From Bdellovibrionales bacterium (GTDB lineage: Bacteria; Bdellovibrionota; Bdellovibrionia; Bdellovibrionales; UBA1609): a stretch of 64,000 nucleotides of DNA. Of this stretch, positions 15,853-33,776 are shown piece by piece. Within the stretch, counting starts at the first letter, position 1. Every line of letters begins with the position of its first letter. The stretch covers positions 26,069 to 90,068 of the forward strand of contig JBFWVI010000006.1 of the NCBI GenBank assembly GCA_050246815.1, given 5' to 3'. The position numbers and the translations under genes are program-made. The notes beneath the pieces are model-generated. The model did not search any database and was not told the origin of the DNA. It was given only the letters and a program-made list of their open reading frames with translations.

Positions 15853-18800
15853 CTAGCGAGCCAAACGGAATTCGTCGCAGCCTTGATTGGTGAAACAATA
15901 ATCGGTCGAACGGTGGAAGATGTTCACCTGTCGATTCAGATCCGTCAATAAAGAGGGCGTGATCAAGGTCCTTACACGCTCTTCTATGCTGATATCCATA
16001 AAGGGACGCTGTCCTTCAGGCAAACGCTCCACGCGACTTAAGTGATCCGAAAGTTTTCTTTCAAAATTACCCATTCGGCCAATCTCGTCTTGGATAAAAC
16101 CAGTGACGGCTTTGTCCATAGTCTGGTCCAAAATGGGCGAAATCGGGATCAAAAACAAACGCCGTGCCTCTTGTCCCCGAATTTGCTTGTACAGTTGGCC
16201 CAAACGCAAATAGCTAAAGTGCTTATACCCCTCCATGCGCGCAAAAGCCGCCATGAAAGTGTCTTTTCCGGACATCCCGGCTAGCTCTTGCAAAACTGAA
16301 TCCGCCCCCAAAAGCGGTTTGCTTGCGTAGCGAATAGGCAAATCGTAAAGGCCCCAAACACTTATTAGCTGCTCATTGATAATGTCGTAATCCACCATTT
16401 TGCGTGACAACATGATGTTATCGATTTTGTGGGGCAGCCCCGCCATCTTCATCAAACGCCGTTCTTCGCCGTCAATTCGCATGCCCACCAACATCTGCTC
16501 ATGTATGTGAATAATTTCTTGCGCCGACACCAACTCTTTCTCAGAAGCACAATTCATCGGCGGGCGACAAACATCCTCGATCACTTTTTGATCGCCCAAA
16601 CGATACAAAATGGTGGCCGCATGCAGCCGACTTTCAGCATTGGTTAAACGCGAAGAACCCATGGTGTGCCAGGCCAAAATGTTGCCGTAGTTGATCAAGT
16701 TGATCATACCTTGCGCGACAAACTCGTCTTCATTTTCCAAGAAGGGCAAAAACGGCCGCTCTGTTTTATCCAGACTGCCGACCAATTCGTTCTCGATATT
16801 CAATTGCCCACCGTAATTGACAATCATGCGCGGCGCGATCGGCGGCAAAGTTTTGCCGGCTAAAGTCGTGCCTTTTGTCAGGTTTTGGGCGATGCGCAAA
16901 AGCACATCGACCTGATTGTAGCGATAACCGCCCTTTGAAAATTCATCCAAGCCCGTAAAGCCGCTGGGAAGCCCTTTAAAACCGTACTCTTGCTTTAGCT
17001 GTGCTTGAGTCACTTCGCCCGCGCGCAAACGCTTAAGCTCTTTGTGGACCTGCCTCAGATAGGCCTCTTCTCTTAACAGCAGTTCCACGCGAACCTTTTC
17101 ATCCGCGTGATAAAGATTCATGTAACAGTGCCCAACAGTCCGGAAAGTGCCTAGTCCCAAACGGAAAAAGTTGACTCGCAGATTATGAAGCTTGTCTAAA
17201 ACGGCTTTCGAACGTTTAAGTCTTTGGTCAATTCCTGTTGCTCCCGAACGTTCAAGATATTGCTGATATGACGAAACCAACCCATCCAGCCAGCGCTGCA
17301 CATTGCCTAAATCCAAACGGACTTCTTCGGCAATTGTGTTAAAACCATTGTCATCAAACAACATCAGACTTTGAATATGCTTTTCAACATCGCCTTCCTT
17401 TTTCGATTTGGTGCTATCCTGACTTTTTGAAGAGACCGCCTCAAAAATTGAGCCCTGCAGCCCTCCGTACAAGGGACTCAGCCGTAGATCACGCAGATTG
17501 ACCGTTGTGCTGATCGAGCCGCCATCCACCTGTGAACAAAGGCGCTTGAACTGGTAAAAGTGCGGCCCCGCCGTCCTTTGCACCAGCAGCAGACGATACT
17601 TATTCACCTCATAAGTGCTACGCGACAAAAGCTTTTCCGCGATTTCGGCGACAAATTCATCGGGATTGACCTTAAATTTCTCAAAAACACCTGTGCGCAG
17701 AGCAAAATCAAAAGAATAGAGAAGCTCAACAAAACTAAGTGCGGAACGATCCAACGAGTAATTGAACCAAGCTTTATACTGCCCCAAAAAAAGCTTTTCG
17801 ATCAGGTTCGAAGAATCGATTTCGAGGGTGTACCAACCACGATCGATGGTGGCCTTGCCATTGCGCTTTGCCAGGTAATAGGTCAAGGCCATCATTTGCG
17901 GAAAGACAGCCATAAACTTGATGTTTTTATGTACCCCACCAAAGTATTGACGAGTCTGATCCGCCAGTGCTTCAGACCCGCGCTGCTGTCGAATCAATTT
18001 GACGGTCAAATTCAGCAAAGAGGTCAGCCGCGAAGTGAAGCCATCCCAGATCGGCTGAGCTTCATTGGCCGCCCATATCGCGTGAAAGAAAAAATTTGGA
18101 CCTGCCACATCTTGCTTAAAGAATTGCTTTTGTGCCAAATCGTTCGAAGCCGCCAAAGCTTCCAAGAAACGCAATAAATAAATTTGTCTGGCCTTTTGGG
18201 CGACGACTTGTGGGCTGATATCGTTTGCCGCAATCAATTGCAAAGCTTGATTGTTAGTCAACTGCCCCAAAAACGCCTGATCAAGCAACTGCAGGGTCAA
18301 ATCCCACTCACGGATGGGCTGTACTCCAAGCTGGTCCAACATGGAATGATGTTCTTTTTGCAGACGATTTTGCACCTCACGTAAACTATTCCCGCTGGCA
18401 AAATACTGGGCAACACGTTCTTGGCTTTGCTCTGTCGTTCCGACTTTAGAAAGTCCACCGACTTTCGCCAAGACACCAATCAAAGCATCTGAACTGTAGC
18501 CCAAATCATCCATCCGTTTACGGCTGGTTTCATTGAGCAAATCCAAGTGCTGCACGACAGCCTGCAATTCTGCTTTATTACCACGACGAATCAACTGCTG
18601 GGTCAAGGTGGTCAGCATATGCGAAAAATCCCGCGCCTTTTGTTCATCTTGCATAAGCAAAATTTCAAGATACTTTTGCGCCGGTTTGAGCATTAAAGTG
18701 GCCAGCTCAGAATCATAAAGGCTGCCCTTTAGGGTGTAGGCCAATTGCAACAAACGATAATAGCGGGGCAGATCATCTTGGTGACGCAAGGCCAGCTGCT

Positions 18801-19221
18801 GTGCCACAAATGCAGAATTTTTGGCCAAATTAAAAAAAGTCAGATGCTGGCAGCGGCTCATTGTTTCACCGCAGCCATAGGTCAGCATGATTTCATAATG
18901 TTCCAAAATTTTAACTGTCGCGGGGTCAACCGTTTTTGAACGCGCCGCCTTCAGAATTTCTTCATTTAAGCGCCACAATTTTTGCTGCGTTTGCGGTTGA
19001 CCCAACACTTTGGGTGACTGAATCACTTCCGCGCGCAACAGCTCTTGGGTTAGACTTTGTAAGCTGAGCGCTTCAATGTCAGTCGTGACCTCTGCGGCAC
19101 GGCTTTCCGCAGGAACCAACGCCGTCGCCGCGGCAGGTTCATGCCTGCGCACAGGCTTGCCGCGCTCGACACAGCCGATTAAAAGGCCAAATAAAATGAT
19201 GAAGCTCAACGTGCGACGCAT
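15853..19221 (-). CDS. large hypothetical lipoprotein (1122 aa), paralog of 20068-23643
   Basis: Lipoprotein signal MRRTLSFIILFGLLIG-C; largely helical-looking; many collinear blocks shared with the upstream 1191-aa lipoprotein. Confidence 0.85.
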   Translation of the reverse strand: MRRTLSFIILFGLLIGCVERGKPVRRHEPAAATALVPAESRAAEVTTDIEALSLQSLTQELLRAEVIQSPKVLGQPQTQQKLWRLNEEILKAARSKTVDPATVKILEHYEIMLTYGCGETMSRCQHLTFFNLAKNSAFVAQQLALRHQDDLPRYYRLLQLAYTLKGSLYDSELATLMLKPAQKYLEILLMQDEQKARDFSHMLTTLTQQLIRRGNKAELQAVVQHLDLLNETSRKRMDDLGYSSDALIGVLAKVGGLSKVGTTEQSQERVAQYFASGNSLREVQNRLQKEHHSMLDQLGVQPIREWDLTLQLLDQAFLGQLTNNQALQLIAANDISPQVVAQKARQIYLLRFLEALAASNDLAQKQFFKQDVAGPNFFFHAIWAANEAQPIWDGFTSRLTSLLNLTVKLIRQQRGSEALADQTRQYFGGVHKNIKFMAVFPQMMALTYYLAKRNGKATIDRGWYTLEIDSSNLIEKLFLGQYKAWFNYSLDRSALSFVELLYSFDFALRTGVFEKFKVNPDEFVAEIAEKLLSRSTYEVNKYRLLLVQRTAGPHFYQFKRLCSQVDGGSISTTVNLRDLRLSPLYGGLQGSIFEAVSSKSQDSTKSKKEGDVEKHIQSLMLFDDNGFNTIAEEVRLDLGNVQRWLDGLVSSYQQYLERSGATGIDQRLKRSKAVLDKLHNLRVNFFRLGLGTFRTVGHCYMNLYHADEKVRVELLLREEAYLRQVHKELKRLRAGEVTQAQLKQEYGFKGLPSGFTGLDEFSKGGYRYNQVDVLLRIAQNLTKGTTLAGKTLPPIAPRMIVNYGGQLNIENELVGSLDKTERPFLPFLENEDEFVAQGMINLINYGNILAWHTMGSSRLTNAESRLHAATILYRLGDQKVIEDVCRPPMNCASEKELVSAQEIIHIHEQMLVGMRIDGEERRLMKMAGLPHKIDNIMLSRKMVDYDIINEQLISVWGLYDLPIRYASKPLLGADSVLQELAGMSGKDTFMAAFARMEGYKHFSYLRLGQLYKQIRGQEARRLFLIPISPILDQTMDKAVTGFIQDEIGRMGNFERKLSDHLSRVERLPEGQRPFMDISIEERVRTLITPSLLTDLNRQVNIFHRSTDYCFTNQGCDEFRLAR

Positions 19222-19230
19222 GCTCTTCCT

Positions 19231-20064
19231 TTAAAACTGGTAAGCCGCCGAAAATGAAACGATTCGGCGGTACTGATCGATGTACCACAGCGAAACCCGT
19301 CCATCTTCGGTGTAGCCACCATTGCCGGTGGATAAACTCATGCTCCATGCTTCGCCCAAAACACTTAGGCTGGCGGTGTTGGAGTACGAGTAATCCCAAA
19401 AACCATCCAAATAGCGGGTTTGTTTTAAACCAAAACCCGCGCTCAAACTAAAATGCGAACCCAACTTCAAAGTATTGCCCCAGCTGTAGGTAACTGAGGT
19501 TCCCGGATTTGCGGCGCCACCGCTCGAATAATCATAGCTGTTCAACAACTCCGACAACGCCAGCGAGTGAGTCATCGAAAAACGATCGTCGAAAAAATTC
19601 CAAGTGCCGCCGCCGCTCATCGACAACAATCCAAGATAACCTCCGCGGCGACTGGCGGTGTCCATCAATGCCGTGCCGCCAGCGTTGATAAACCAAGGGC
19701 TAAAATCACCGGGATTGTAACTCAAGTTCAAACTCGGGTTGACACCGGTCGACTCCAAAGCGGAGTCTTCTTGCTTTTTGTCAATCTGCCCATCGACGGT
19801 TGTGAAGTTCGCCGATAAACCCATGGACAAGTTCCATCTGGGGTTGATCACATAACCAATATCCACGCTTAAGCCCTGATAATAAAGGCGAGGCATCGAT
19901 CGGTCCGCCAAATCCGTCGAAACACCATAGCTTGTGCCAAACGACCAAGAACTGACCTTGGGTGCGTCCACCTTGACCACAGACTTGGGTGTTTTAGCAG
20001 ATGCGGCCAACGCGTTGGCCTGCAAGCCGCCGATCAGAATAAGAATTAGCACACGGGCATTCAT
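19231..20064 (-). CDS. putative outer-membrane beta-barrel protein (277 aa)
   Basis: Sec signal (ANA-LA), alternating amphipathic strands rich in S/G/Y/W, C-terminal beta-signal IVSFSAAYQF. Confidence 0.78.
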   Translation of the reverse strand: MNARVLILILIGGLQANALAASAKTPKSVVKVDAPKVSSWSFGTSYGVSTDLADRSMPRLYYQGLSVDIGYVINPRWNLSMGLSANFTTVDGQIDKKQEDSALESTGVNPSLNLSYNPGDFSPWFINAGGTALMDTASRRGGYLGLLSMSGGGTWNFFDDRFSMTHSLALSELLNSYDYSSGGAANPGTSVTYSWGNTLKLGSHFSLSAGFGLKQTRYLDGFWDYSYSNTASLSVLGEAWSMSLSTGNGGYTEDGRVSLWYIDQYRRIVSFSAAYQF

Positions 20065-20067
20065 GGT

Positions 20068-23000
20068 TTAGAAAGCCTCCGCCGCGTTCTTTGTTTTAAT
20101 CAAAGCCTGCCCACGACGTGACAAATAATCGGTGTTGAACTTGTTGCCCGTCTTGTGCGTGAAGTTGTTGTGACTGGCCGCCAAATTGCCCAGCATCAAA
20201 TTGTCCACAACACCCAAAGGCTCTAATCCTTTTGAGCTTTCAATATCCACAACGCGAGCATTTTCATCCAAACGCACTCGGGTTTTGAACAAATCCCGAA
20301 AGGATGGATCCCTTTCAAATTCAGGAGCCTTGGCAAAAAACTCAAACAGGCGGGCTAAAATACGATTGATCGGCTTGCCATAAACGGAATATAGAGTGCT
20401 CTGAAATTCCGGTCCAGGATCAAAAATAATCACACCTTCATTGTTCAAAGTGTTAAACAAGGTGTGCCCGCCCGATAAAAGGCCCCTTAATCCACCACTT
20501 AAACCGGCGCGCTCGTACAATCGCATCATCAGGCTGCGCAGCAGGGGTTGGGCCCGCATCGTGACGGGCTCAAGTAGAAATCCTTCTAAACTTTCCACTT
20601 TCATCCGTCCATCTAGACCCATGATGGTGGCGTTTTCGACATCAAAGTCATTCAGGTTCACCAGCTGCACGATGTCTTTGAAAATATTGGCCAGCTCGCC
20701 CGCACTGATACTTTGCGGCTTGTCGCCCTCGACGGAAATCTGCCCCATCAAGTACAGATCCACCGATGTATCCAGATAATCTTTAAAGGCACTCAATTGT
20801 GCGCCTTGCCCCTGCCACTCGGCATAGGACGCGCCGGATTGCCCGCTGAAATGCTTCAAGCCCTGCCGGATGAAGTCTTCCTTATTTGGCATGTACTGAA
20901 TCACCTCGGCTGGACTTTTCACCGACAGGTCCATGCGCTCTAACCCGTTGGGCACCAGCACCCGCACAGAGCGAGGGCGAACCAATCGAACCAACTCGGG
21001 GCCGTACACTTGGCGTTCTCGGTCCGTAACTTGGGTGAAAATATCCCCTTCGACGCGCTTTTTCACTCGCATAAAAAAGTCGTACTGGGACATGCTGTAG
21101 CCTTCTAATCGCAGATGATCAAATTTGACGGCCCTGTCAGAGAAGTGCTCTTTGTTGAGCTGCTGCAAGCGGGCGCTCTGCCCCGCCACACCTTTAACGT
21201 CATGCACGCTTTTCAACATGTCATGAATGCGGCCCAGATGGGCGCGTTCTTCTTGCACCAGGCGATACGAACGCATCATCTCCACCTTGTAGAGTTGTTT
21301 GGTGCATTCGAACATGCTTTTTCTATACTTCATGTATGTGGTAAAAAAGCGCCGTTCACGCGACTCCACTTCACGAACGATATTGCGAATATTTTCCAGA
21401 TCGGGATGAGCCTCATCACGGCTCTTGATCTCACCAGTTGCCAGCATGTGGTTTTCGAGCAGGGCGATGATCGCCCGCACAAAGGTCAACTTCGGCTCAA
21501 CATCATCAAAGATCGTGGCAACCGTTTGCTGTGATTCTTTGCTGTAGACTTTTTTGAGCAAATCAAAATACTTGTTGTCACCCATGCCCACGTAGGTGAA
21601 CTTGCCCAAATCCAAGAGTTCAACCTCTGTCGTGGGGGCTGCGGGAACCGAGCCAAGAGGCGCCAGCTCATAGCGACAGATATTCACCAATGCGTTGAAG
21701 GACGCATGCCCCAAGACATTGCGCTCGTACTCCATGTACTTGTCTTCCAAGAAGCGCCGTTGACCCTGTAGATATTTGCCCAAGGTCAGTTCAAAAAATT
21801 TGGCACGGTCGGATTGTCCAGAGATCTTCTCGTCGACGGTGAAGGTCTCAAGCGCTTGAGTCTTCAACGCGTAATGAAAGGCGTAAAAAAGACGCTCTCG
21901 CTCTAAACGCACGATGTCCGAAGTGAAGCGGAACCAAAGGTCTTGAGTGTTGTACAGCCCATCAAAAAGATCGCTCACCACGGTTTCAGCCTGAATAGTG
22001 AACTCGGCTCCCCACCATGACTTTTCTTTGACAGTGCCTTTGTTTTTGGCCAAAAAGTACGTCATGCCGATCATGTTGGGGTAAACAGAAATGTAATGGA
22101 CGTTTCGGCTGAAGCTTTTCATCAGCGCACTGGTGTCAGTGAACTCTTGGGGGATCACCGCGCGACGTTTAAAATAGGAGCTCACAAATTTATCCAGCAA
22201 GTCCAACTTGCTTTGAGTTTTCATCCAACGCGTCGACAAATCGCGACTTACCATAATAGCTTCAGAAAAGATCGCACCGCTGGGGATCGACTTCGACTGG
22301 TAAATTCCCATCATAAAATCGATTGTTTCGATGGTGAGATGGGCCAATTGCACGCGCATGTAGGTCCGCAGTGTCGAAAGCAATTCGGTTTGGGCGCGGC
22401 TAGCATCCGTTCGCTCCAAGATGCTCATCGCCTCACCTGAGCTTAAATGTTCATTGAACAGTCGATCCAAAATAAAAAAGTACTCATTGTAAAAACTCGA
22501 CTCAACGTTTTTGAGTCGGTTGAGATCTCCGGCCATCCCCAAGTTTGAAAGAATATCGGCCCCGTTCATATGAGAGCGCCCATGCAGCTTGTTGACGATC
22601 TCGTTAAAAGAAGGAAAATCCTTGTCGCTTTCGTTTTGTGACTCTTTGATCGCGAGAAGCATGGAATCCGAAAGCTTGAACTGCGTCGCATCCTTGTATA
22701 AGCAGCACTGGGTTGCCAGATTCAACATGGCCTTTGAGCCATGTCGAAAGGTGTCGCTACGGCGGCTTGAAAAAGTCCACGGTACAAAGTTTTCGATGAA
22801 CTCACGGATCTCTTTGCTATTCACGTCTTTGGGCTTAAAGCGACTGATGAGCAATTCAAACATTGAGGTGTAAGTTTCACTCATATAACCGATGTCACCA
22901 CCCTGAAGCACCAAATAATCCAGCAAGCGGATGTACTTCATGAAAGCAAAAGACATCTCGGAATCGTTGAGTAGCGTGTTTTTAACCGTGTAGGCCATGG

Positions 23001-23643
23001 CCAAACGGCGATAGCGCAAATCGACTAGCTTGCGGCAGGCCGCACTGGCTTCGATGCAGGTTTTGGGCGATTTATGTGTCCTCATCTCGGCTTCAAGCTT
23101 GACGTCATCTTGAGTGGCCAATCGCACCAGAATGCGCGCACTTAATGCGTCTGTTGCAAAAAGCTTCGAATTGATACAACCACGTTTCAAGTCGACAGAG
23201 CAGCCAGCCATCATTGCGTTTTCATAGCGGCGAAACCACTCTTGTTGGGCATTGGCGGTCAGCCCAGCCGGCTGCGTGGTCAAAGCCTTCCAAAATGCAC
23301 TGTTAAAAATTCGGATGGCTTTCTCTAAACGCACCGAAATATTGGCCGGAGTGCTGATGTACTGCACATCCAGCACATAACGAGCAAGGGGCACTAAAAT
23401 CGCCTGCTCCATTTCAGTTGCAGGACGCTTCAGATCTTCTTCAAACTTGTCCAGATTCAATTGCGCAAAGCTATTGCCCATCGCGCTGATCTGCTGGGGG
23501 GTGTGAAGTGTGGTCACGCCCCAGTCCTTTGCGCCCTCGTGCTCTTGGCGTTTGCGCTGTTTGGGCGAGCACGCCGCTAGAGCCACGACAAGACTTAAGA
23601 GGCTGATTTTCAAGACGATATTTTTTTGCGTCGATGTCTTCAT
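20068..23643 (-). CDS. large hypothetical lipoprotein (~1191 aa), paralog of 15853-19221
   Basis: AGGAGG RBS before ATG 23643; lipobox LAA-C (MKTSTQKNIVLKISLLSLVVALAAC). No recognisable domain. Confidence 0.87.
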   Translation of the reverse strand: MKTSTQKNIVLKISLLSLVVALAACSPKQRKRQEHEGAKDWGVTTLHTPQQISAMGNSFAQLNLDKFEEDLKRPATEMEQAILVPLARYVLDVQYISTPANISVRLEKAIRIFNSAFWKALTTQPAGLTANAQQEWFRRYENAMMAGCSVDLKRGCINSKLFATDALSARILVRLATQDDVKLEAEMRTHKSPKTCIEASAACRKLVDLRYRRLAMAYTVKNTLLNDSEMSFAFMKYIRLLDYLVLQGGDIGYMSETYTSMFELLISRFKPKDVNSKEIREFIENFVPWTFSSRRSDTFRHGSKAMLNLATQCCLYKDATQFKLSDSMLLAIKESQNESDKDFPSFNEIVNKLHGRSHMNGADILSNLGMAGDLNRLKNVESSFYNEYFFILDRLFNEHLSSGEAMSILERTDASRAQTELLSTLRTYMRVQLAHLTIETIDFMMGIYQSKSIPSGAIFSEAIMVSRDLSTRWMKTQSKLDLLDKFVSSYFKRRAVIPQEFTDTSALMKSFSRNVHYISVYPNMIGMTYFLAKNKGTVKEKSWWGAEFTIQAETVVSDLFDGLYNTQDLWFRFTSDIVRLERERLFYAFHYALKTQALETFTVDEKISGQSDRAKFFELTLGKYLQGQRRFLEDKYMEYERNVLGHASFNALVNICRYELAPLGSVPAAPTTEVELLDLGKFTYVGMGDNKYFDLLKKVYSKESQQTVATIFDDVEPKLTFVRAIIALLENHMLATGEIKSRDEAHPDLENIRNIVREVESRERRFFTTYMKYRKSMFECTKQLYKVEMMRSYRLVQEERAHLGRIHDMLKSVHDVKGVAGQSARLQQLNKEHFSDRAVKFDHLRLEGYSMSQYDFFMRVKKRVEGDIFTQVTDRERQVYGPELVRLVRPRSVRVLVPNGLERMDLSVKSPAEVIQYMPNKEDFIRQGLKHFSGQSGASYAEWQGQGAQLSAFKDYLDTSVDLYLMGQISVEGDKPQSISAGELANIFKDIVQLVNLNDFDVENATIMGLDGRMKVESLEGFLLEPVTMRAQPLLRSLMMRLYERAGLSGGLRGLLSGGHTLFNTLNNEGVIIFDPGPEFQSTLYSVYGKPINRILARLFEFFAKAPEFERDPSFRDLFKTRVRLDENARVVDIESSKGLEPLGVVDNLMLGNLAASHNNFTHKTGNKFNTDYLSRRGQALIKTKNAAEAF

Positions 23644-23654
23644 CTTGGCCTCCT

Positions 23655-26600
23655 TTATTTGATGTACAGGTTGGTGATAGGTAGCCAAAAACCGTTCAGC
23701 ATGGCGGCGGCGGCCGAGATCTGCCCCACGCCGCGCATAGACTGGTCACAAACCACACGCATCGGCGTGTCCTTGCGGAAACCGGTCATTCGACTCGCGA
23801 CAGCTTTTTCATATTTGCTAAATTCTTTTTCGATCGAGTTATAAAATTCGATTGTTTTCTCTGTTCCCACTTCTTCCGCGATGCCGGCGGGAATATAGAA
23901 GCCCTCAAAGCCTGCTTCGACGTTGTTTTGGCCGGTCTCAGTGGTGCTAAAAAATTCGCTCAAACCCGTGCCGTTGGGGGCGCTCACACAAGTCGAAGTC
24001 ACTTGTTCGTGCTTTTCTGTCAACATGGCCTTCACGGATTGTTCGGTTAATTTGTCACCCGCCGGTGAATCGTAATCGATTTTGATCGCAATGATGTAGG
24101 CGCTGGTGTCATCCAAAAAGCGCATTTGAGTCAGCGGCACCAAGAACATGTCATTCACCCGCACCATGGCCGTGCCTTCTGGCAATAAATAAACATCACG
24201 CGCCGTGCGCGAACGCTGCAGCATCAAATCAAACATGGTTCCGGTGAAGCGCTTATAGTGATTGGCTTTGGTGCGGATATCTTGCTGCGAAGAATTGGCC
24301 GTGATCAAAACCGCGGCCAAAGTAAACTGAAATTCGGTCTGGTTTTGCATCACGCGATTGAAGTCTGACGGCAATAGGCCGGGGTCAGAGCTCCACCAAT
24401 TTTGCCGCGGCAACATCCAGCTAGAAGATAAAATGATATGACCTAGGCTATTGCGTTCAGTTTTTTCGAGGCCTTCAAAGCGCATATTGCTTTCGACCAT
24501 GTCTGAAATCGTGCGGGTGTATTCACCCGGATAAAGCGTGCGGTAAAGCGGCGATCGGCCCTCTGTGGTGTAGAACGGATTCGCCCAGCCCGGCCACATG
24601 AAAGCATAGGGTGAAGTTAAAGCGTAAAGGCTTGCGATTTTCATCGGCAAGTTGCTGAGCTGATACCACTTTCCGATCATTTGGCGATAGTCCGTGCTGA
24701 CATCACCAACCAAGTAGCCGCTCATGATGTAGCGTTCGCGCGTGTCGATTTTGCTATAATCAGATTCGGGTAAGGTTAATAAAAACTTCATTTCGTTCAA
24801 TGCCAACTTCGAAGCACGGCACAAATCGCGAATTCCTTCTGATTTGCGGCCATGGCGGAACATCAACTCTTTCAGTGCTTCGTGGGCCACACCCGACTCA
24901 TCCTTGGCCATGCACGATGCCGAAAATTCATACAAAGCCGCTTTGTCACGCCGAATGCGATCCCAAATCGGAACCAGTTCCCGATCCGTGCTCAAACGTA
25001 AACGCATCTCATCGTAGAATAAACGGACGCGGCCCATGATCGAAAAAGTTCGGGCCCAAAGACGCCATTCGCTGTTGTCCGCGTCAGAGCGATGACCGCC
25101 GACAAATGAATACAAATCGCTGACCAAATCATCCGTCAGCCATTCAAAATAAAAACGCACCAGTTCTTCCGCCGTGTTGCCACGATCCCAGCGATTGCAA
25201 AACGGGTCCGCACTGTAAGAAGCTTCCACGTCATTGCACTGTGGGAAGTAACCCGTGGGTAATTTGCCTTGCTTTGTGACGGTCATGTCCGGTACGCGAC
25301 CATTTTCAGGCATTTTAAAGTAGTCGAATTTGTCTGCATCCTTATTGTAGGTCGTGTATTCTTGTTTGTATAGGTAGCGCAGAACCAAACGGTCCTGGGG
25401 ACCCGGCATCAAGGTTTGACTGTCCAAAGCCATCCAGGTGCGGCCGCTCAAGTAGCCCATGATGGAGCTTAGGTTGGTGAACTCATGTTCAGGATTGGCC
25501 AGTGCTGCCAATGATTTTTGAATAGCGCTTGGGACCGTGCCTTCCTCGGGCACGATATTTTCTTTGAACTGGTGACCCAGCCCGTACATATGTCCCAATT
25601 CATGCAAAAGCAGTTTCATCATCATGCCGTCAAAGTGCTCGCGGAAGGGGCGGCGAGCGGCATTTTTACCTTCGCGTGCCATGGCTGAGCGCAATTGGGC
25701 GGCGGTCAAATCCTTATCGGGAAATGCAGAAGAGGCCTGCATGCGGTAGCCACGCAGCCTCTTGACGCGCTCACCGCCATCTTTGGTGTCTCGCACGATG
25801 GCGCTAATCGCTGTGCGATCTTCCGCGCTCATCGAAAGCGTGCTTTCCGTATTGCTTTTACCTTGAGTCATTCCCAGATGCTCTAAAAAGCTGCGACCGG
25901 CAAAACGTTTTTCCGTCTCGCGCTTCATTTTTTGCGCTTCCGCCATCAAATCAGCCGCGACCTTGTTGCCAAACTTAGGATTCGACATGGCCGTCATTTG
26001 TTTGCGCAATGACTGAATCTGTTCTTCGATTTTTTTCATGTCGGGAGATCCGGTTTTGCCGCCCCCGTGCTCACTGGCTAAACGGACCATTTCACTGTTC
26101 AAGAATTCGCGACCGTGCTCATTTAATTGCTGCTGCAACACGCTTCGGTTGTTACCATTGAAGTTTTCAAATCCTTCTGGCAACCCCAATGCCGAAGGTA
26201 TTCCCATCGCTTTTGCGTCGCCTGGGAAAATGCGCATTCCCGCAAGGCTGCCACTGCCGCCATGACCGGGATCATTTTCAGAATACATTTGAACCAGGCT
26301 TTCCATCAGGCCGCCAAAAACCAAAACATGGCCCCACAGGATCTTGCCGTTCTGCAAATCGGCGTGGGCATACCCCACACCAAGAGCGTTGTTTTCAGAA
26401 ATGCGGCGATCGGCCACATAGGTGATGCCTGGGTAGCGCAAGTCAAAATCATGCTTGCGAGATTGCACGATGGGCTCAAAGGCTTTTTGCCCTTTGGGCA
26501 CAACACCCTCTTCTTGATAAACTTGATTCCATTTCTCAATGCCAGCGATCAATAAATCTTGAATGGCCTTGTCTTCGGCGCCGTTGATATAAAGCTTCAC

Positions 26601-27491
26601 GGGCTTAGACACATCCCAGTGTGCGGCGTACAGCTCTTCGGCCTGATCATGGCGTTTACCCATGACATGCAAGATGTTCATCAAACGCGAGTTTTCTTGG
26701 TGATAGGGTGTTTTCTGAAAATGTGGGTCATGCTCAAAACGCAAAAAATTGACGCGCACATGGGCCTGCGCATTGGCGGCGCTAATGCGCGACCCGGTTG
26801 ACAGACTCATATTCAAGGTGAAACCCAAAAAACCGCGCTGCTTGTCCCACTCAATATCGGTGGCCGTCGAGTGTGATAGGCCATCGTTCATCGACTTCGA
26901 CCAGAATAAGCCGGGATCCACCAGCTGAATACCCGCCAAATTAAGCTTGATCATGGGACGTGCTGAAAAATCACTCCGGGTGGAATTTTCAACCCACTCG
27001 TTGGTCTCGCGGCCATGTTGGTCTTTGGCGCGCTCGTAATAAAAATGACTCACGATTGGAATGCGAACATACTCTTTCCAGTGCTGGATTTCGCTGTCTG
27101 CACCCTTTCCTTTTTTGGGTTTTTGCATGAAGGTGGGGTTGACCAAACGGCCGACCAACCAGTTTTGGTCTTTGATTTCAAACACCAAATTGCAATGGGG
27201 GGAGGCATGATCCAAATGACCGAAAAGCCATTCACCGTATTCACCCGCTTCAACTTCGGGGGCCCAGCCGCACATGAAATATTTAGGTTTTCCATCGGTT
27301 GAAAGAAAGAAGGATTTTTCGACGTTCAAAACATCCGGCACCGGGGTCTCGGTGGCGCGCTCTTTAAAGGCCTTGAAGTTGAAGATGCTTCCTTTACCTT
27401 GGCAGGCCGTCAGGGCCAAAAATGCCGTGAAGCTGACCACGAATCGCATACTTACGCTTAAGCTGTTAAAACCATTTGGCTTTTTGTACAC
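23655..27491 (-). CDS. large zinc-dependent metalloprotease lipoprotein (Met-zincin, DUF4953/EcxA-like catalytic module)
   Basis: HELGHMYGLGH (HExxHxxGxxH), Met-turn SSIMGY, GPQDR..LRYLY, CND...DPFCNRWDRG; lipobox LTA-C. Start is uncertain: GTG 27491 (AGAGGG RBS), ATG 27449 or ATG 27512. Confidence 0.85.
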   Translation of the reverse strand: MYKKPNGFNSLSVSMRFVVSFTAFLALTACQGKGSIFNFKAFKERATETPVPDVLNVEKSFFLSTDGKPKYFMCGWAPEVEAGEYGEWLFGHLDHASPHCNLVFEIKDQNWLVGRLVNPTFMQKPKKGKGADSEIQHWKEYVRIPIVSHFYYERAKDQHGRETNEWVENSTRSDFSARPMIKLNLAGIQLVDPGLFWSKSMNDGLSHSTATDIEWDKQRGFLGFTLNMSLSTGSRISAANAQAHVRVNFLRFEHDPHFQKTPYHQENSRLMNILHVMGKRHDQAEELYAAHWDVSKPVKLYINGAEDKAIQDLLIAGIEKWNQVYQEEGVVPKGQKAFEPIVQSRKHDFDLRYPGITYVADRRISENNALGVGYAHADLQNGKILWGHVLVFGGLMESLVQMYSENDPGHGGSGSLAGMRIFPGDAKAMGIPSALGLPEGFENFNGNNRSVLQQQLNEHGREFLNSEMVRLASEHGGGKTGSPDMKKIEEQIQSLRKQMTAMSNPKFGNKVAADLMAEAQKMKRETEKRFAGRSFLEHLGMTQGKSNTESTLSMSAEDRTAISAIVRDTKDGGERVKRLRGYRMQASSAFPDKDLTAAQLRSAMAREGKNAARRPFREHFDGMMMKLLLHELGHMYGLGHQFKENIVPEEGTVPSAIQKSLAALANPEHEFTNLSSIMGYLSGRTWMALDSQTLMPGPQDRLVLRYLYKQEYTTYNKDADKFDYFKMPENGRVPDMTVTKQGKLPTGYFPQCNDVEASYSADPFCNRWDRGNTAEELVRFYFEWLTDDLVSDLYSFVGGHRSDADNSEWRLWARTFSIMGRVRLFYDEMRLRLSTDRELVPIWDRIRRDKAALYEFSASCMAKDESGVAHEALKELMFRHGRKSEGIRDLCRASKLALNEMKFLLTLPESDYSKIDTRERYIMSGYLVGDVSTDYRQMIGKWYQLSNLPMKIASLYALTSPYAFMWPGWANPFYTTEGRSPLYRTLYPGEYTRTISDMVESNMRFEGLEKTERNSLGHIILSSSWMLPRQNWWSSDPGLLPSDFNRVMQNQTEFQFTLAAVLITANSSQQDIRTKANHYKRFTGTMFDLMLQRSRTARDVYLLPEGTAMVRVNDMFLVPLTQMRFLDDTSAYIIAIKIDYDSPAGDKLTEQSVKAMLTEKHEQVTSTCVSAPNGTGLSEFFSTTETGQNNVEAGFEGFYIPAGIAEEVGTEKTIEFYNSIEKEFSKYEKAVASRMTGFRKDTPMRVVCDQSMRGVGQISAAAAMLNGFWLPITNLYIK

Positions 27492-27742
27492 AAAGACCCT
27501 CTCTGCAAACATTGTCGATTTTACATGGTACAAATTACAGGCCATTGTCCAACCCTGTTTTATATGCATAACTATTTGAATTTATTAATTAAAATTTGCA
27601 CTCAAAGCGTCCTCATCTCACCCCCCTGTCAGCTTGGCCCCAAAAGTGACGCAAAAGGGCGCCTTTGAAGGGCAGGTTTTTTGGGGTACTTTGGCTGCTC
27701 TTTTGACCCCGCAAAACCGCTTTAGAAAGGCCTTTCAAAGTC

Positions 27743-28795
27743 ATGAACAAATACAGCAAATGGGCCTTGATCGGCCTGGCAACGGCGGCCTTCGTTTTGA
27801 TTTTTATTCCCTTTTACTCACAGATTTTGTTGGCCGGGGTTTTTGCCTTTGCATTGGACCCGCTCTCGCGCGTGCTGGTGTCACGTCGATTTATTCAAAA
27901 CTCCAAAATCAACTTTCGCCGCAAGCAGTGGGTGGCAATTATTTTGGTGGCGCTCTTTATGCTGATCACAACACCGATTTCGATCGCCTTTTATGATGTG
28001 TACGGAACCGTGAGTGAGGCCGCCACCAACGGTCTGCAAAACTCTGAATTCTATGCGGACTTAATGCGCCTGAAGGCTGCGGTGGTCCCCTATGTGGAGG
28101 ACACGATTCAATCCTTCAATCTGAAGAGACAAGTCAACCTGACCACTTTGGCCGAGAATACCTTAAATGATTTGGGCAAGCGAGCCATGGCCTTTGTCGG
28201 CGCGGCACTTGGGCAACTGCCGGACTTTGTACTTTTCATTGTTGTGTTCGTCTGCGCTCTTTACTTTTTCTTGGCTGAGAATCGCCACCTGCGTGCGGCC
28301 CTGGTGCAAAGTAAAGCCATTACCCCACAAGAGCTGGATCGTATCATCTTGATCTTTCAAAAGGCCTGTTCTTCCACAATTCTGGCTTCGGTGATCACAG
28401 GTCTGGTGCAAGCTTCGATCGTGGCGATTGGAAGCGCGATTTTAAAGACCGGCGATTTCTTTTTGATCTTTGTGGTCACCTTCTTTTTGTCATTTGTTCC
28501 GGTCATTGGCGCGGCCCCCGTGGCGCTGCTGTTGTGTCTGTTGGCTTTGGTGAAGGCCTCTTACGGCACTGCCGTGGGTTTTGCCATTTTGGCTGTTATC
28601 ACGGGCAGTATCGACAATGTGCTACGCCCCTATTTGGTGAGTGGCGATGATGACGTTCATCCCATCCTGGTCTTGCTGGGGCTGCTGGGCGCCATCACAA
28701 TTTTTGGACTGCCGGGGCTGTTTTTAGGACCCGTGATCACCTCGGTTACCGTGCAGCTTTACAAGGAGTACGCACTGGGAACACCTGACGTTTAA
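27743..28795 (+). CDS. AI-2E family transporter
   Basis: About 350 aa and multi-TM, with SFVPVIG, DNVLRPYL, HP..VLLGLLG and GLFLGP. Confidence 0.9.
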   Translation: MNKYSKWALIGLATAAFVLIFIPFYSQILLAGVFAFALDPLSRVLVSRRFIQNSKINFRRKQWVAIILVALFMLITTPISIAFYDVYGTVSEAATNGLQNSEFYADLMRLKAAVVPYVEDTIQSFNLKRQVNLTTLAENTLNDLGKRAMAFVGAALGQLPDFVLFIVVFVCALYFFLAENRHLRAALVQSKAITPQELDRIILIFQKACSSTILASVITGLVQASIVAIGSAILKTGDFFLIFVVTFFLSFVPVIGAAPVALLLCLLALVKASYGTAVGFAILAVITGSIDNVLRPYLVSGDDDVHPILVLLGLLGAITIFGLPGLFLGPVITSVTVQLYKEYALGTPDV

Positions 28796-28856
28796 GCCAC
28801 AAGACTTAGATCCGGTTGGCCTGGCCAAAACACCGCGAATCAGGTTTAATTTTCTT

Positions 28857-29324
28857 ATGACCAAAACCATTCGAGCCTCGTTGTTGTTCGCGATTTCTTT
28901 GTCGGCCCTTCAAGCTTTGGCGTTCAACCCCGATAAGTGCGGCGAACTCTTTCCGAAATCCGGTGAAACGCATCGACCCTATTTGGCACCCATCTATTCT
29001 TCGACCATCGCACCGTCGGTGACCTCGTATTTTTCGTCTTTCGGCAAGTGCGCCATGTACAATTCAAAAATTTCCATTCAGCGCAAGAAATTCATCAAAG
29101 CCAGCTATGATCACCTCAGCACCGAAGCGGCTCAAGGCCAAGGTGAGTACGTGGCCGCGCTCGCAAGTTTGAGCGGCTGCCCATCGGAATCCCATGCGGC
29201 GTTCTCGCACGGACTTCAGCGCCAATACAGTCAAGTTTTTGCTCGTGGCGCAGACGGCTTGGACCAACAAGTCGACGCCATGATTCAAGACGATTCTTGG
29301 CTGGCTTTAAGCTGCCGCCAGTAG
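28857..29324 (+). CDS. secreted DUF3015-like protein
   Basis: Signal peptide; L.TEAAQGQGEYVAALASLSGC resembles the DUF3015 core. Confidence 0.65.
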   Translation: MTKTIRASLLFAISLSALQALAFNPDKCGELFPKSGETHRPYLAPIYSSTIAPSVTSYFSSFGKCAMYNSKISIQRKKFIKASYDHLSTEAAQGQGEYVAALASLSGCPSESHAAFSHGLQRQYSQVFARGADGLDQQVDAMIQDDSWLALSCRQ

Positions 29325-29381
29325 CTTAGCTTCGGCCCACCTCTTGCTTTGTTCACACCACGTGACCTTCAGGGGCGTTAA

Positions 29382-30290
29382 ATGGCATTGCACCACCTAA
29401 AAGTTGCCTTGTTTTGTCTGCAGCTTCTGCTTTGTGGCACAGCTCGCGCCGCGGGTCCGATTTGCAATGGCGAACTGAAACCCGGCGAATCGCGCGATTA
29501 CTGCGGTCACAAAGCCAGCACAACCGGTGTTTGGCCCTGCTACAGGCTGACGCGAAATGCTCAAAATCCAAAACAATACACCGCCTTACTTACACTGCGC
29601 TTCAATTACCTGGAATCTCACTGCCGCGGTAACCAGGAGTGCGAGTATGGAGATGCCAACCACTTGATGCAAAAAATGACGGACCCAAAAAAAATTGTCC
29701 AGATGGATCGTGATTATCGAGCCTTTGTGCAAGGCTGCTATGACGACGCCAACCCCTTTTTGAATGGACCCAACTATGAAAATCTAAAGCTGACACTTGG
29801 TGCTCCGATGGCAGCTCACGCCGGCGCCCCACCTGTGCGCGAAGTCAACGTTTACGATTACGCCGTGGACCGTGAGTCCGACGACACTTGGAGCCCACTT
29901 GGTGAGATGTCTTGCGCCACCGTGATGCACGAAACCATGCACATCCTGGGACTGGTGGACGAGTATGAGGAAGCAGAAGGCCACTACCTAAATAAGAAAG
30001 GCCAGCGCACCCATCGCGAGACGGACACATGGCGTTCCATTTACAGCTGCCGCAGTCTTGGCCCTGAAAGCTCGATCATGTCGAATCCCTTCGCGGGTGA
30101 TGACATCGAGGAGGACCCCTCCGGAACGACGGCAATTTTCGCCGCGCAGTTTCGTGAAATTGTTTACCATGATTGCCCCGAACTCAATCGCGTCTACCGT
30201 TCGTGCGCCCGCAATGCCTACCGTGGCGCCGGCCACTGCCTAAAGGTCGACCCCATTTGCAAAGCACCGGATTTCAAATGGCTGGAGTGA
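29382..30290 (+). CDS. secreted cysteine-rich zinc metalloprotease (zincin)
   Basis: Signal peptide (ARA-A), HETMHILGLVDEY motif, SSIMS Met-turn, many Cys. Confidence 0.8.
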   Translation: MALHHLKVALFCLQLLLCGTARAAGPICNGELKPGESRDYCGHKASTTGVWPCYRLTRNAQNPKQYTALLTLRFNYLESHCRGNQECEYGDANHLMQKMTDPKKIVQMDRDYRAFVQGCYDDANPFLNGPNYENLKLTLGAPMAAHAGAPPVREVNVYDYAVDRESDDTWSPLGEMSCATVMHETMHILGLVDEYEEAEGHYLNKKGQRTHRETDTWRSIYSCRSLGPESSIMSNPFAGDDIEEDPSGTTAIFAAQFREIVYHDCPELNRVYRSCARNAYRGAGHCLKVDPICKAPDFKWLE

Positions 30291-30880
30291 AACACTTCTC
30301 TCTTCAATTTATTTTGACTATCTTGGGCACATTGACAGTGGCCGATGCACAACCGCGCAAAGCTAGTGTGACTGCCGCACTTGACTCACAAATTATGCGT
30401 ATTTATAGCCAACACTTTCACACCTATGACACCGTCAACAACATGCCCTGGGACTGCGGCGGCAATGCACTTGATCTGTTTCTTGAGCTGGAGCGTGAAG
30501 ACCTCATTAAAGAGCGAAAAGCTTTTATCGTTCATACCTTCTACGAATATGATTTCAAATTGGACGCGAAAAACCGTCCGCTCTCAAGAGTTTTAATCCC
30601 CTTAAAGGCTCGTCGGGGTCATCCTTGGTGGGCCTTTCACGCTTTCTTAGTTTTGGACGAGGTGGTCTTAGATCAGTACTACACCGACCAACCCCAAGCC
30701 CTTGATCTAGACCGGTATCTTTCACTCATGTGGGGTGACGAAAACCTTCACGATCTGCATTTTCAAATCATTCCCGCGCAACAGTATCGACGAACTCAAG
30801 AGTGGGGCCATTCCCCAAGCATGAAGCTTCATCCCCAACTTAACCACGAGCAATTAAAAGCTCAGCTGCAAAAAATGTAA
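30287..30880 (+). CDS. secreted protein with a papain-like Cys-His-Asp triad (protein-glutaminase/NTAQ1-like fold, inferred)
   Basis: GTGA overlap with the upstream stop; signal peptide VKHFSLQFILTILGTLTVADA; WDCGGNA...WWAFHAFL...VLDQYY. Confidence 0.6.
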   Translation: MKHFSLQFILTILGTLTVADAQPRKASVTAALDSQIMRIYSQHFHTYDTVNNMPWDCGGNALDLFLELEREDLIKERKAFIVHTFYEYDFKLDAKNRPLSRVLIPLKARRGHPWWAFHAFLVLDEVVLDQYYTDQPQALDLDRYLSLMWGDENLHDLHFQIIPAQQYRRTQEWGHSPSMKLHPQLNHEQLKAQLQKM

Positions 30881-30884
30881 ATTT

Positions 30885-30922
30885 TATCTGTTCCAATTTT
30901 TTGGAACAGATATGTTCCAAAA
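30885..30922. promoter_or_regulatory. two overlapping inverted repeats built from three TGTTCCAA half-sites (operator and/or terminator)
   Basis: TATCTGTTCCAA-tttt-TTGGAACAGATA (12-bp IR, 30885-30912) overlaps TTTTGGAACA-gata-TGTTCCAAAA (10-bp IR, 30899-30922), just before TTGACC at 30926-30931. Confidence 0.6.
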
Positions 30923-30960
30923 TCTTTGACCTCGTCGTTTGGTCTCAGTATCTGGGCTTC

Positions 30961-31767
30961 ATGGAAAACACGACCAGCGAAATTAACTTCAAGTCCTTTC
31001 TGCAGAATGAGTTCATCGACCGCTGCCGCAAAAACGGCAGCTACTCGCTGCGCTCGTTTGCCCGAACGCTCAAGGTTTCACCGGCGGCGCTGTCTGAAAT
31101 GATCAATGGCAAGCGCCCCATCACCCCTAAAACCAAAGCCAAGATCGCCCTGCTTTTAAGGCTTAGCCCCGAGCAATTGAACCAGATTGACGGCGCCCCG
31201 CTGCGAACAAAGCCTGCGCTTCAATATGACCAGATGACCGTAGACAGCTTTGCCCTGATCGCAGACTGGTACCACTTTGCGATTATGGAATTGTTGGCCT
31301 TAAAGAATTTCAAAGAGGACATCCGCTGGATTTCCCACACCTTGTCGATCACGCCCACCGAGGCCACGATCGCCCTTGAACGTTTGCTGCGTCTGGGACT
31401 GCTGAAGCGGGATTCAAAAGGAAAACTTAAAGACGGCACCAGCGGCTTCACCACCAGCTTGAACAAAGGTCAGACCAGTGAAGCGGCACAAAGGTTTCAA
31501 AAGCAGGCTTTGCAAAAAGCCATCGATGCCATTGGCCAAGTCCCGCTGGAGTATCGCGACAACACCAGCATGACCTTTGCCATAAACACTGAAGATTTAG
31601 ACAAAGCCAGACAAAAGATCGAGGCCTTCCGCCGCGAAATGAATGCGTTTTTTCAGCTGGCCGCAAGCTTCGACGAAGTTTATCAGTTGTCCGTTGCACT
31701 TTTTCCCCTCTCAAGGGCCGCTTCTGAAAATAAAAAAATAAAAAAATCAAAAGGGAGTCAAAAATGA
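30961..31767 (+). CDS. TIGR02147/DUF4423-like HTH regulator
   Basis: YSLRSFARTLKVSPAALSEMINGKRP HTH, WYHFAIMEL, ERLLRLGLL, C-terminal VYQLSVALFPL; start placed at ATG 30961. Confidence 0.85.
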   Translation: MENTTSEINFKSFLQNEFIDRCRKNGSYSLRSFARTLKVSPAALSEMINGKRPITPKTKAKIALLLRLSPEQLNQIDGAPLRTKPALQYDQMTVDSFALIADWYHFAIMELLALKNFKEDIRWISHTLSITPTEATIALERLLRLGLLKRDSKGKLKDGTSGFTTSLNKGQTSEAAQRFQKQALQKAIDAIGQVPLEYRDNTSMTFAINTEDLDKARQKIEAFRREMNAFFQLAASFDEVYQLSVALFPLSRAASENKKIKKSKGSQK

Positions 31768-33251
31768 AACAGGTTCTAAAACTGGGTGGTTTGTTCACCG
31801 CCATGATAATTTTAGCCGCCTTTACTCGCGGCGCCGATGCAGTCAAGGGTCGAGAGGCCGGTGGCGGCACTTATGTCGTGATCGACGGCAATGTGGTGCT
31901 TGCAGACCCCTTTTACAAAGCGGTGGGCCGCGAACATCGCTTTGACGCCTTTGCGCCAGAAATCCAAGACTACATCACCAGCGCCGAAAAACTCTTAGAG
32001 CGGCTTGCGATCACCAATCCATCATTTTGGAACGACACGGTTCGGGGCTCGAAAGCAATCTACATCCGCGTGCCGGCTGGCGAAGAAAACCGTGTGGTTT
32101 GCGTCAAGTACCTACCGGAGCTGACCCGCGACGTGGAAGGTCACTTTCAGTATGGTTGCAAAGGAAAAGGCAATATCACCTATTTATTTGCAAGCTTCGA
32201 ACAGTCCCGCAGTTTGCGTGAGCAAGGCAAGGCAATCATTCATGAGCGTCTTTGGGTCGCCAATCCCGACGTAGATCAACGCTTCATTGCCAAGTTCGTC
32301 ACAGTTTTAGGCAAATTGATGAAACGTCGTGAAGACCAAATCTTCCGCAACAACCGTGCATCTTTGACGGATGCCGAAATCGCTGAATACGATCAATTGC
32401 AAATGGCGGCCGAACAACTTGGCTTTGAAACCAGAAAGCCGCTTTTGCCGATCGGAATGTCTTGGAAAAATGTTTTGGCGTACCCTTTGAGCAAAAGCGT
32501 CGTACGTAACGGTGGCGGATTGGCGACATTTTATTATTCTGTTGCCACGGGAAAGTACCTCCCCGTCACTAAAGTGGATGCAACCTCATTCGTTGGAGTG
32601 GGCAGTGTTTTAGGCGACCAAGCTGAGCTTCAAAACTCTGTCGTTCTAAGTTCAGTACTGTTTGCAAAAACCCGCCTACAAAATAGCGTGGCAGTCAGCT
32701 CTTTAATTTCGGCCGCTCAAATTAATCAATCTGAGATCCGAGATTCAGAATTGCAGCAAGCAACCGCATATCCATCGGTCACCACCATTAACTATGCGAT
32801 GGTCACAAAGTCCTCTATCGACACGATGTCCTTATTGGGATCTGCGGATGCGCCGGTTGAAATCAACTCTTCTACCGCTTATGGTAACTATACGATTTCG
32901 AGTGTCGCAGCCGGAGCCAAACTAAACAATTCTGTACTGAGGGCTCGCTACAATAGAGACTCACTTCGTAGTGACACTGGGTTCAACATTCAAATCCAGA
33001 CCGGCGCAATCTTAGACAACGTGAGAATCGCCACTGAATTTGACACCGACATGATCGTGACCGCCGGCACCCAAGTTCAAAACTTGAATATGGTCAACAG
33101 GCGGACTCGCGGCGGCGGCATTTTCAACTCGAAACTGGAGTTCAATTCCCCTTCGGGCCCCATGAATTTCGGTGGGTTAAATTGCACACTGAACGAAAGA
33201 GTACTGCGCCTTAACTCGACCGCCGACTTGAACGGCCGTTGTGAGAAGTAA
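31764..33251 (+). CDS. secreted hypothetical protein (Gly-rich N-terminal motif, HERLW motif, beta-solenoid-like C-terminal half)
   Basis: GGGAG RBS and ATGA overlap; signal peptide then GREAGGG; IIHERLW; short repeats LQNSVVLSS / LQNSVAVSS / INQSEIRDS. Confidence 0.75.
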   Translation: MKQVLKLGGLFTAMIILAAFTRGADAVKGREAGGGTYVVIDGNVVLADPFYKAVGREHRFDAFAPEIQDYITSAEKLLERLAITNPSFWNDTVRGSKAIYIRVPAGEENRVVCVKYLPELTRDVEGHFQYGCKGKGNITYLFASFEQSRSLREQGKAIIHERLWVANPDVDQRFIAKFVTVLGKLMKRREDQIFRNNRASLTDAEIAEYDQLQMAAEQLGFETRKPLLPIGMSWKNVLAYPLSKSVVRNGGGLATFYYSVATGKYLPVTKVDATSFVGVGSVLGDQAELQNSVVLSSVLFAKTRLQNSVAVSSLISAAQINQSEIRDSELQQATAYPSVTTINYAMVTKSSIDTMSLLGSADAPVEINSSTAYGNYTISSVAAGAKLNNSVLRARYNRDSLRSDTGFNIQIQTGAILDNVRIATEFDTDMIVTAGTQVQNLNMVNRRTRGGGIFNSKLEFNSPSGPMNFGGLNCTLNERVLRLNSTADLNGRCEK

Positions 33252-33257
33252 AAACCC

Positions 33258-33767
33258 TTAAGCTCCCTCTGGCCTGCCGGCGTTCGCCCGGTGGGCCATC
33301 CCTCCCAAGATGATCAACACCAGCGTTGTCAAAAGCATCGACCACTTCAACCGAGCACTGGCCGCGCCGACGTAAAAATAAATCGAATCAATCGGCACTC
33401 GTTCAAGGGCCAATAAAAGCTGACAAACATTTTCAATCTCATCAAACAAGCCCGCAAGCAGGGGCACGATCAATACGAGCTTGAGTAATTTGTCATTGCG
33501 CGAAGGAGGCCAACGCACCAACATGGCTGCCAGAAATACTCCATAGAAAATGGGGTAAAAAAAATCGATTAAATAATGCCGTATCCACGCGGCTAACCCC
33601 TCAACCCCTTGACTGTGCAGCAAGAGCTGAAATTCACCCGGATCTAACGTGGTCTGCAGCTTGATGATGTTCCAAGGGTCACCAAACTTGTCCAAAATGA
33701 TCATCAGGGTGACTTGGGAATAAAGAAAAAAGCGCCCCGACAAAGCCAAAACTCTTGGGTTACGCAA
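33258..33767 (-). CDS. hypothetical integral membrane protein
   Basis: About four TM segments with DFFYP..YG and LFDEIEN. Start is uncertain: the ORF-track start (33842) lies inside the long palindrome, so TTG 33767 is proposed. Confidence 0.65.
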   Translation of the reverse strand: MRNPRVLALSGRFFLYSQVTLMIILDKFGDPWNIIKLQTTLDPGEFQLLLHSQGVEGLAAWIRHYLIDFFYPIFYGVFLAAMLVRWPPSRNDKLLKLVLIVPLLAGLFDEIENVCQLLLALERVPIDSIYFYVGAASARLKWSMLLTTLVLIILGGMAHRANAGRPEGA

Positions 33768-33776
33768 AAACCTGAA

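Follow-up and report, generated by a model that had tools for sequence, protein, structure and literature searches.

A conserved cassette encoding a metzincin lipoprotein, two giant lipoproteins and a small outer-membrane barrel in an uncultured relative of Bdellovibrio

Lipoproteins held at the cell surface by an outer-membrane barrel are known from RcsF-OmpA, TraA-TraB, CglB-Glt and the Slam substrates, and the Fap system joins a FapF-type barrel with a peptidase. Here, we describe a four-gene cassette located in a 64,000-nucleotide stretch of DNA (the window; positions 26,069 to 90,068 of contig JBFWVI010000006.1) from an uncultured Bdellovibrionales bacterium, a relative of predatory Bdellovibrio. 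The cassette encodes a long zinc protease of the metzincin type (ZINC), two giant lipoproteins (BIG1 and BIG2) and a small beta-barrel. The way in which predators of the Bdellovibrio type breach the outer membrane of their prey is, to our knowledge, an open question. Most of the entry-phase proteins are uncharacterised according to PMC12546842, and the metzincin Bd3137 of Bdellovibrio bacteriovorus, which is a distant relative of ZINC, is given one sentence in that paper. A literature search, the coverage of which stopped short of subscription journals, found no account of the cassette or of a barrel-protease pair. The cassette is real and undescribed, and its function is what we infer below. 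With it come a family of 130-kDa proteins for which no fold match was recognised and an undescribed barrel-plus-protease module.

The cassette belongs to none of the known systems tested. ZINC shares a predicted catalytic fold, the HExxHxxGxxH motif and the Met-turn with the EcxA-like proteins of the DUF4953 family (PF16313), but it is five times longer than EcxA, lipid-anchored, and equipped with further domains at both termini and an inserted helical region. An AB5 toxin of the EcxAB kind is not encoded either, as no small B-like reading frame is conserved beside the cassette and ZINC is a 142-kDa lipoprotein rather than a small secreted A subunit. The barrel resembles COG4313/SphA/FapF-type barrels in size and predicted fold, with a template modelling (TM) score of ~0.7; unlike Fap, however, the cassette has no amyloid subunits, the partners of its barrel are lipoproteins, and its protease is a metzincin. 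In SusC/SusD utilisomes, too, the barrel gene has lipoprotein and hydrolase genes around it, but the cassette barrel has 277 residues against about 1000, without a plug or a TonB-dependent match, and the BIG proteins are unlike SusD. The barrel protein is also too short for the Omp85 proteins (BamA, TamA and TpsB, which combine POTRA domains with a 16-strand barrel) and has no Pfam match. Its barrel starts about 15 residues past the signal peptide, without the N-terminal TPR domain of Slam (type XI), to which no match was obtained. By analogy, the cassette likely works as the barrel-anchored surface lipoprotein systems do, where lipoproteins are held or displayed by a barrel devoted to them; it differs from RcsF-OmpA, TraA-TraB, CglB-Glt and Slam in having no match to these families in Pfam or NCBIfam and in providing three lipoproteins of 126–142 kDa per barrel gene. 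A close arrangement is that of Bd3137 and CAE80892.1 of B. bacteriovorus, a homologous long metzincin lipoprotein and a small barrel that lie near each other as in the cassette.

The four genes and their products

All four genes lie on the minus strand, in the order ZINC (23655..27491), BIG1 (20068..23643), barrel (19231..20064) and BIG2 (15853..19221), and are separated by only 11, 3 and 9 nucleotides. Translation of ZINC may start at GTG 27491, which is preceded by GAGAGGG, or at ATG 27449; its lipobox Cys codon is located at 27404 and its stop at 23655. Upstream of ZINC is an AT-rich region (27570..27600, minus strand, 87% A+T) that is likely a promoter region, although no sigma-70-like promoter was found upstream of ZINC (7 sites in 15 kb versus 12.5 expected). 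Lipoboxes were called by sequence pattern in ZINC (1249 residues when mature), BIG1 (1191 residues) and BIG2 (1122 residues), namely LTA-C, LAA-C and LIG-C, followed at position +2 by Q, S and V, respectively; the mature masses are 142, 134 and 126 kDa. An initial annotation of the window, made from its letters, had described this co-oriented layout with its gaps, the AT-rich stretch, three lipoboxes without Asp at +2 and a barrel with a Sec signal and a YQF end, all of which agreed with the open reading frame coordinates and translations. Its further statements that the protease has a metzincin motif with a Met-turn, that the two giant helical lipoproteins are paralogs, and that the layout is unlike the Sus, Bam/Tam, two-partner secretion and Tc arrangements likewise held when relatives, profiles, models and databases were compared.

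The zinc-binding motif of ZINC, HELGHMYGLGH, occupies mature residues 601–611 (25572..25604, minus strand), of which H601, E602, H605, G608 and H611 are invariant in 54/54 aligned relatives. The same is true of the Met-turn residue Met649, encoded by 25460-25458 on the minus strand, and a lipobox is present in all 53 full-length relatives. A structure model was available for an ortholog of 44% identity, with a predicted local distance difference test (pLDDT) value of 86.9 and a predicted TM score (pTM) of 0.84. This model consists of an N-terminal beta domain (~11–225), a catalytic domain interrupted by a variable insertion of helices, and a C-terminal part made of helical and beta domains. 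In the structure search it came closest to EcxA (a chain of PDB 4l6t; Z 11.7, root-mean-square deviation (rmsd) 3.1 over 185 residues), then to archaemetzincin and matrix metalloproteinases, and each of the 13 leading rows is a metzincin (Z 11.7–7.5). The window ZINC gave no Pfam match at E 0.01, and PF16313 appeared only at E 9e-4 in the genome search; this family was weakly matched by 10 of 11 ZINC relatives (best E 3e-6), and the related long metzincins exceed its curated cut-off whereas the window ZINC lies below it. Nothing near the cut-off was found in NCBIfam. By motif, Met-turn and predicted fold, ZINC is accordingly classed as a metzincin, as a divergent sister of DUF4953, and its zinc site reads as intact with proteolytic activity predicted. 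Lipocalin rows given by Foldseek for the N-terminal domain were not significant and were discarded. ZINC relatives also carry P-x-x-E-T-P-x-P, and the long metzincins that are paired with a barrel (see below) often carry C-[VAT]-K-x-R; both are candidate export or docking signals.

BIG1 and BIG2 showed 21% identity over 903 columns (E 8e-18), and a profile-profile comparison gave probability 100 and E 7e-96 over 1023 columns. On these alignments they are full-length paralogs, of which BIG2 evolves faster. No homology was found between BIG and ZINC. A profile search extended the BIG family to 456 clusters at 50% identity, and the lipobox Cys is aligned in 136/149 relatives. BIG1 is predicted to be all-alpha, and its model is almost entirely helical (pLDDT 89.3, pTM 0.80) with helices of up to 68 residues. 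Neither BIG1 nor BIG2 matched Pfam (E 0.01), nothing near the cut-off was obtained in NCBIfam, and sequence searches of the PDB were blank; a BamC match that appeared in the family search covers the signal peptide only and was dismissed. The fold searches used the whole 1167-residue model of BIG1, so their blanks do not prove a new fold: TM was at most 0.15 against the PDB, the best row was a designed helical repeat (Z 9.6, rmsd 6.6) lying below the noise bar of ~13 for helical proteins, the viral structure library was blank, and ESM Atlas gave no usable match. ClyA, YaxAB, Tc subunits and phage ejection proteins were not among the matches listed for the same model.

No hydrophobic membrane segment was found in BIG (the best 19-residue hydropathy is 1.16, with a family mean of 0.79), and no catalytic motif was recognised among the conserved columns, where Cys pairs, Trp, Phe and Pro account for most of the invariant positions. 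A tether of the form C-x(5-9)-R-x-x-H-E is conserved behind the lipid anchor (window 23571-23536 and 19173-19138) and is a candidate export or docking signal. A His occurs at +5 to +16 from the lipid Cys in 112 of the 136 relatives, and the stretch is unstructured in the model (pLDDT ~50). In a FastTree tree of 104 BIG sequences, first- and second-position copies fell into mirrored subtrees, with exceptions (L031), which therefore points to an old duplication with both copies retained. Such retention would be expected of two different subunits.

The 277-residue barrel protein has a Sec-type signal and ends with AAYQF, a C-terminal aromatic beta-signal. Its Atlas model (pTM 0.70) gave TM 0.8 to clusters of unnamed "outer membrane receptor" barrels and TM 0.71 to COG4313/Phenol_MetA_deg-type channels, and yet PF13557 was matched by none of 47 cassette barrels; one barrel that is paired with a metzincin outside the cassette does match it (E 2e-7). 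Signal, fold model and beta-signal together identify the protein as a predicted outer-membrane beta-barrel.

Conservation of the cassette and an older barrel-plus-protease pair

BIG1 was matched in 11/41 related genomes, with strong ZINC matches directly upstream. Loci were collected by using ZINC alignment patterns alone; a single-protein pattern scan of contigs gave nothing. The protease-pattern scan yielded 63 loci from metagenome-assembled Bdellovibrionales, Bdellovibrionia and similar bacteria, in 55 of which a BIG gene lies next to ZINC, while in the remaining 8 the contig stops within 300 nucleotides of the protease. Co-occurrence of the homologs in other genomes, the lack of which had been set beforehand as a reason to abandon the idea of one envelope complex, was thus found. 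A full-length match of the giant proteins to a characterised family, set as a second such reason, did not turn up in the sequence and fold searches above. Over all loci there are 77 distinct ZINC sequences, a set that includes loci reached through BIG matches and is hence not independent; when at least 600 nucleotides are available downstream, BIG follows in 67 of 68, and the one exception is half of a split protease gene. The order ZINC-BIG is invariant at 17–45% identity.

The position of the barrel gene is variable, and it may lie away from the cassette in the genome. Of the cassettes, 52 are followed by 8.2 kb or more of sequence; among these, the barrel is located between the BIG genes in 41 and upstream in 4, with none nearby in 6, and 1 cassette is broken. 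A close barrel is nevertheless encoded in all five of the searched genomes that hold barrel-less cassettes (E 9e-50 to 1e-89), in a second cassette in three of them and apart from BIG genes in two. In one draw of 301 genomes of the phylum, BIG was found in 20, and 19 of these same genomes also have a close barrel (E below 1e-40), which no genome outside the 20 has; barrel E-values show a gap from 2e-41 to 3e-14. The profiles were built partly from the genomes counted, which inflates the barrel scores, and the genomes include kin that are not independent. The four genes are conserved as one cassette and probably constitute one envelope unit.

Some cassettes deviate in arrangement. In G025:C3 (L033/L054), two diverged cassettes stand head to head with the barrel first in each, and genome G025 holds a third with the usual order. 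Cassette genes are split or truncated in the assemblies of L022, L051, L087 and L107, where several of the L087 breaks resemble assembly errors, and in G095 a four-gene cassette is flanked by two barrel-protease pairs.

Metzincins of the wider PF16313 group were detected in 128/151 genomes of the phylum. In the fetched loci, short metzincins (720–920 residues) stand alone, whereas long ones (1080–1650 residues) mostly follow a barrel gene of 270–390 residues. For comparison, 16 long metzincins with an upstream barrel, chosen by hand, were set against 8 stand-alone short ones. The 16 barrels form one family (leave-one-out E at most 1e-19, 16/16), which is homologous to the cassette barrel (probability 99.3, E 7e-21), and no such barrel was found in the fetched flanks of the 8 stand-alone metzincins. 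The 16 paired proteases align to ZINC residues 50–767 (E 1e-36), whereas the 8 short ones align only from residue 178 onward. Because the barrels are homologous and the paired proteases share the N-terminal beta domain of ZINC, the four-gene cassette is read as an elaboration of an older and widespread barrel-plus-protease pair, and because this domain aligns with barrel-paired and not with stand-alone metzincins, it is the likely contact with the barrel. The ancestral partner of the barrel is, on this sequence comparison, the protease and not the two giant BIG proteins. The initial proposal of one envelope complex, in which the barrel would anchor or export the two giant subunits and the protease, is partly supported: a single conserved genetic unit of envelope proteins is borne out, whereas the original partner of the barrel and its place in the genome are refined as above. 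In family f10 (L028, L042/L127/L128, L181 and L182), both kinds of large metzincin loci lie beside the addAB helicase-nuclease genes.

Possible function and the Bdellovibrio bacteriovorus relatives

We tentatively propose that the products form a barrel-anchored surface protease complex with BIG1 and BIG2 as scaffold or gate, used in prey attack, a statement that as a whole we place slightly below an even chance. The three lipoproteins would go to the outer membrane by Lol sorting, where the small barrel would anchor or display the lipid-tethered zinc protease on the predator surface, probably by contacting the N-terminal beta domain of ZINC. BIG1 and BIG2, putatively as a heterodimer, would provide a two-subunit helical scaffold that positions or gates the protease, and the presumably surface-exposed complex would act during prey attack. 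Its use at prey contact is carried over by analogy from the distant relative Bd3137, so the guess of the initial annotation in this direction gains indirect support, from that protein only. A more far-reaching version, amounting to an outer-membrane machine of a new class in bacterial predators, in which BIG1 and BIG2 make a collar or conduit of new fold at the predator-prey junction, the barrel displays a giant protease that opens the prey envelope, and the Bd3137/Bd3133 core is the prey-entry protease of Bdellovibrio, seems improbable to us.

Two proteins encoded at locus L181 are identical to B. bacteriovorus sequences, one to CAE80895.1 (Q6MIL8, Bd3137) and the other, whose gene lies 1.8 kb upstream, to CAE80892.1; they fit the paired protease profile at E 2e-71 and the paired barrel profile at E 2e-58, respectively. 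CAE80892.1 is taken as Bd3133 (Q6MIM1), because the accessions are consecutive and the neighbours match. This link brings an observation made in uncultured bacteria only to a genetically tractable predator. In the data of PMC12546842, Bd3137 is represented by 83 peptides in the entry-peak cluster, with a log2 change of 1.49 at 1 h (false discovery rate 2e-14), and it is up within 15 min of prey contact and down from 2 h on. In PMC11003981, it was also detected in prey that had been killed but not invaded. In the PMC12546842 data, Bd3133 rises by 1.3 log2 units with the same course (r 0.92); the step changes of the two proteins correlate at 0.96, whereas 12 other neighbours give values between −0.58 and 0.51, the comparison being with 13 other proteins only in a data set where many entry-peak proteins covary. 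The gene just upstream of CAE80892.1 (L181 1-2025) is Bd3132 by accession order, which according to PMC11003981 carries a MIDAS motif and is induced when prey is contacted; its protein profile in the PMC12546842 data does not follow Bd3137.

The narrow base of that covariation is one of several points that weigh against the proposed surface complex. The stand-alone metzincin Bd1841 also gives r 0.93, with step changes at 0.72 (PMC12546842, same data). Bd3137 is distant from ZINC (probability 97.9, E 5e-13, ~270 columns) and itself uncharacterised, and its locus has no BIG partners, two genes between barrel and protease, and low identity, while CAE80892.1 compared directly with the cassette barrel gave a weak match (probability 76). 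The detection of Bd3137 in uninvaded killed prey is based on 2 peptides; PMC11003981 mentions that material from broken predators may be carried over, and Bd3133 was not detected in the same prey. The long metzincins L120 and L121 have no barrel in their fetched flanks. The cassette was found in 0/20 genomes of genus g44 and was not found in G001, which belongs to the same genus and is 96% complete; being so patchy (20/301 genomes), it is not required for predation in general. Lipoproteins by default face the periplasm. The sorting rule of Asp at +2 is that of E. coli, and because of this, and because 8 of the 136 BIG relatives have Asp at +2, the residue at this position is weak evidence here.

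Default Lol sorting would suit a complex on the periplasmic side, with protease and scaffolds beneath a barrel, that serves upkeep or remodelling of the cell's own envelope, much as BepA or Prc-NlpI do, and that may be linked to division; the location of the cassette within the dcw cluster is in line with this. A point that the initial annotation did not make is that the cassette sits between murD (33859) and ftsW, and the latter begins 67–82 nucleotides past BIG2 in the same orientation, no terminator-like site having been detected in the gap; 9/63 related loci also adjoin ftsW. However, 7 of those 9 are oriented away from ftsW, and the remaining 54, some of them short contigs, show no ftsW beside the cassette. 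The murD-ftsW junction is prone to insertions, because in genome G006 murD and ftsW are adjacent with the cassette elsewhere in the genome, and G004 has unrelated genes there. The place beside ftsW therefore looks like an insertion site rather than a division role, and the dcw position argues little about function. Bd3137, moreover, drops during the division phase, its value being 7.6 at 4 h and 5.8 by 7 h in the data of PMC12546842. We regard an own-envelope role as unlikely.

A smaller probability is given to the idea that BIG1 and BIG2 are cargo, such as an adhesin, a two-part effector or a channel, that is freed on or into prey when ZINC cuts the R-x-x-H-E tether. The conserved His in an unstructured stretch, the long helices and the presence of two non-redundant paralogs would fit such release, but no hydrophobic membrane segment was found in BIG, and in many genomes the protease family operates alongside a barrel where BIG proteins are absent.

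Slightly less credence still goes to a TonB-independent feeding unit, in which the surface protease digests outside protein, the BIG proteins capture substrate, and peptides or hydrophobic products enter through the barrel. The barrel model resembles channels that are implicated in hydrophobic-molecule uptake according to PMC4493636, and a patchy, at times multi-copy distribution suits an accessory nutrition trait; on the other hand, no transporter or catabolic gene is conserved beside the cassette, and the relative Bd3137 rises at first contact and falls early. That these are merely co-regulated envelope genes not forming one complex, as the mobility of the barrel gene might suggest, is very improbable, since a displaced barrel is still kept in the genome (5/5) and the ZINC-BIG order does not vary.

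Genomic surroundings

The segment between murD and the cassette (window 27743-33842) contains seven further genes, so that the dcw cluster is split by ~18 kb in all. Six of them are plus-strand genes unrelated to the cassette, and one is a membrane-protein gene; an AI-2E transporter, DUF3015, an HTH-DUF4423 regulator and orphans are among the products. The segment also encodes a secreted-looking protein of 302 residues with HETMHILGLVDE and without a Pfam match. At the same junction in G004 (L155 2863-13898), the unrelated genes amount to ~11 kb and include a 1267-residue orphan directly before ftsW.

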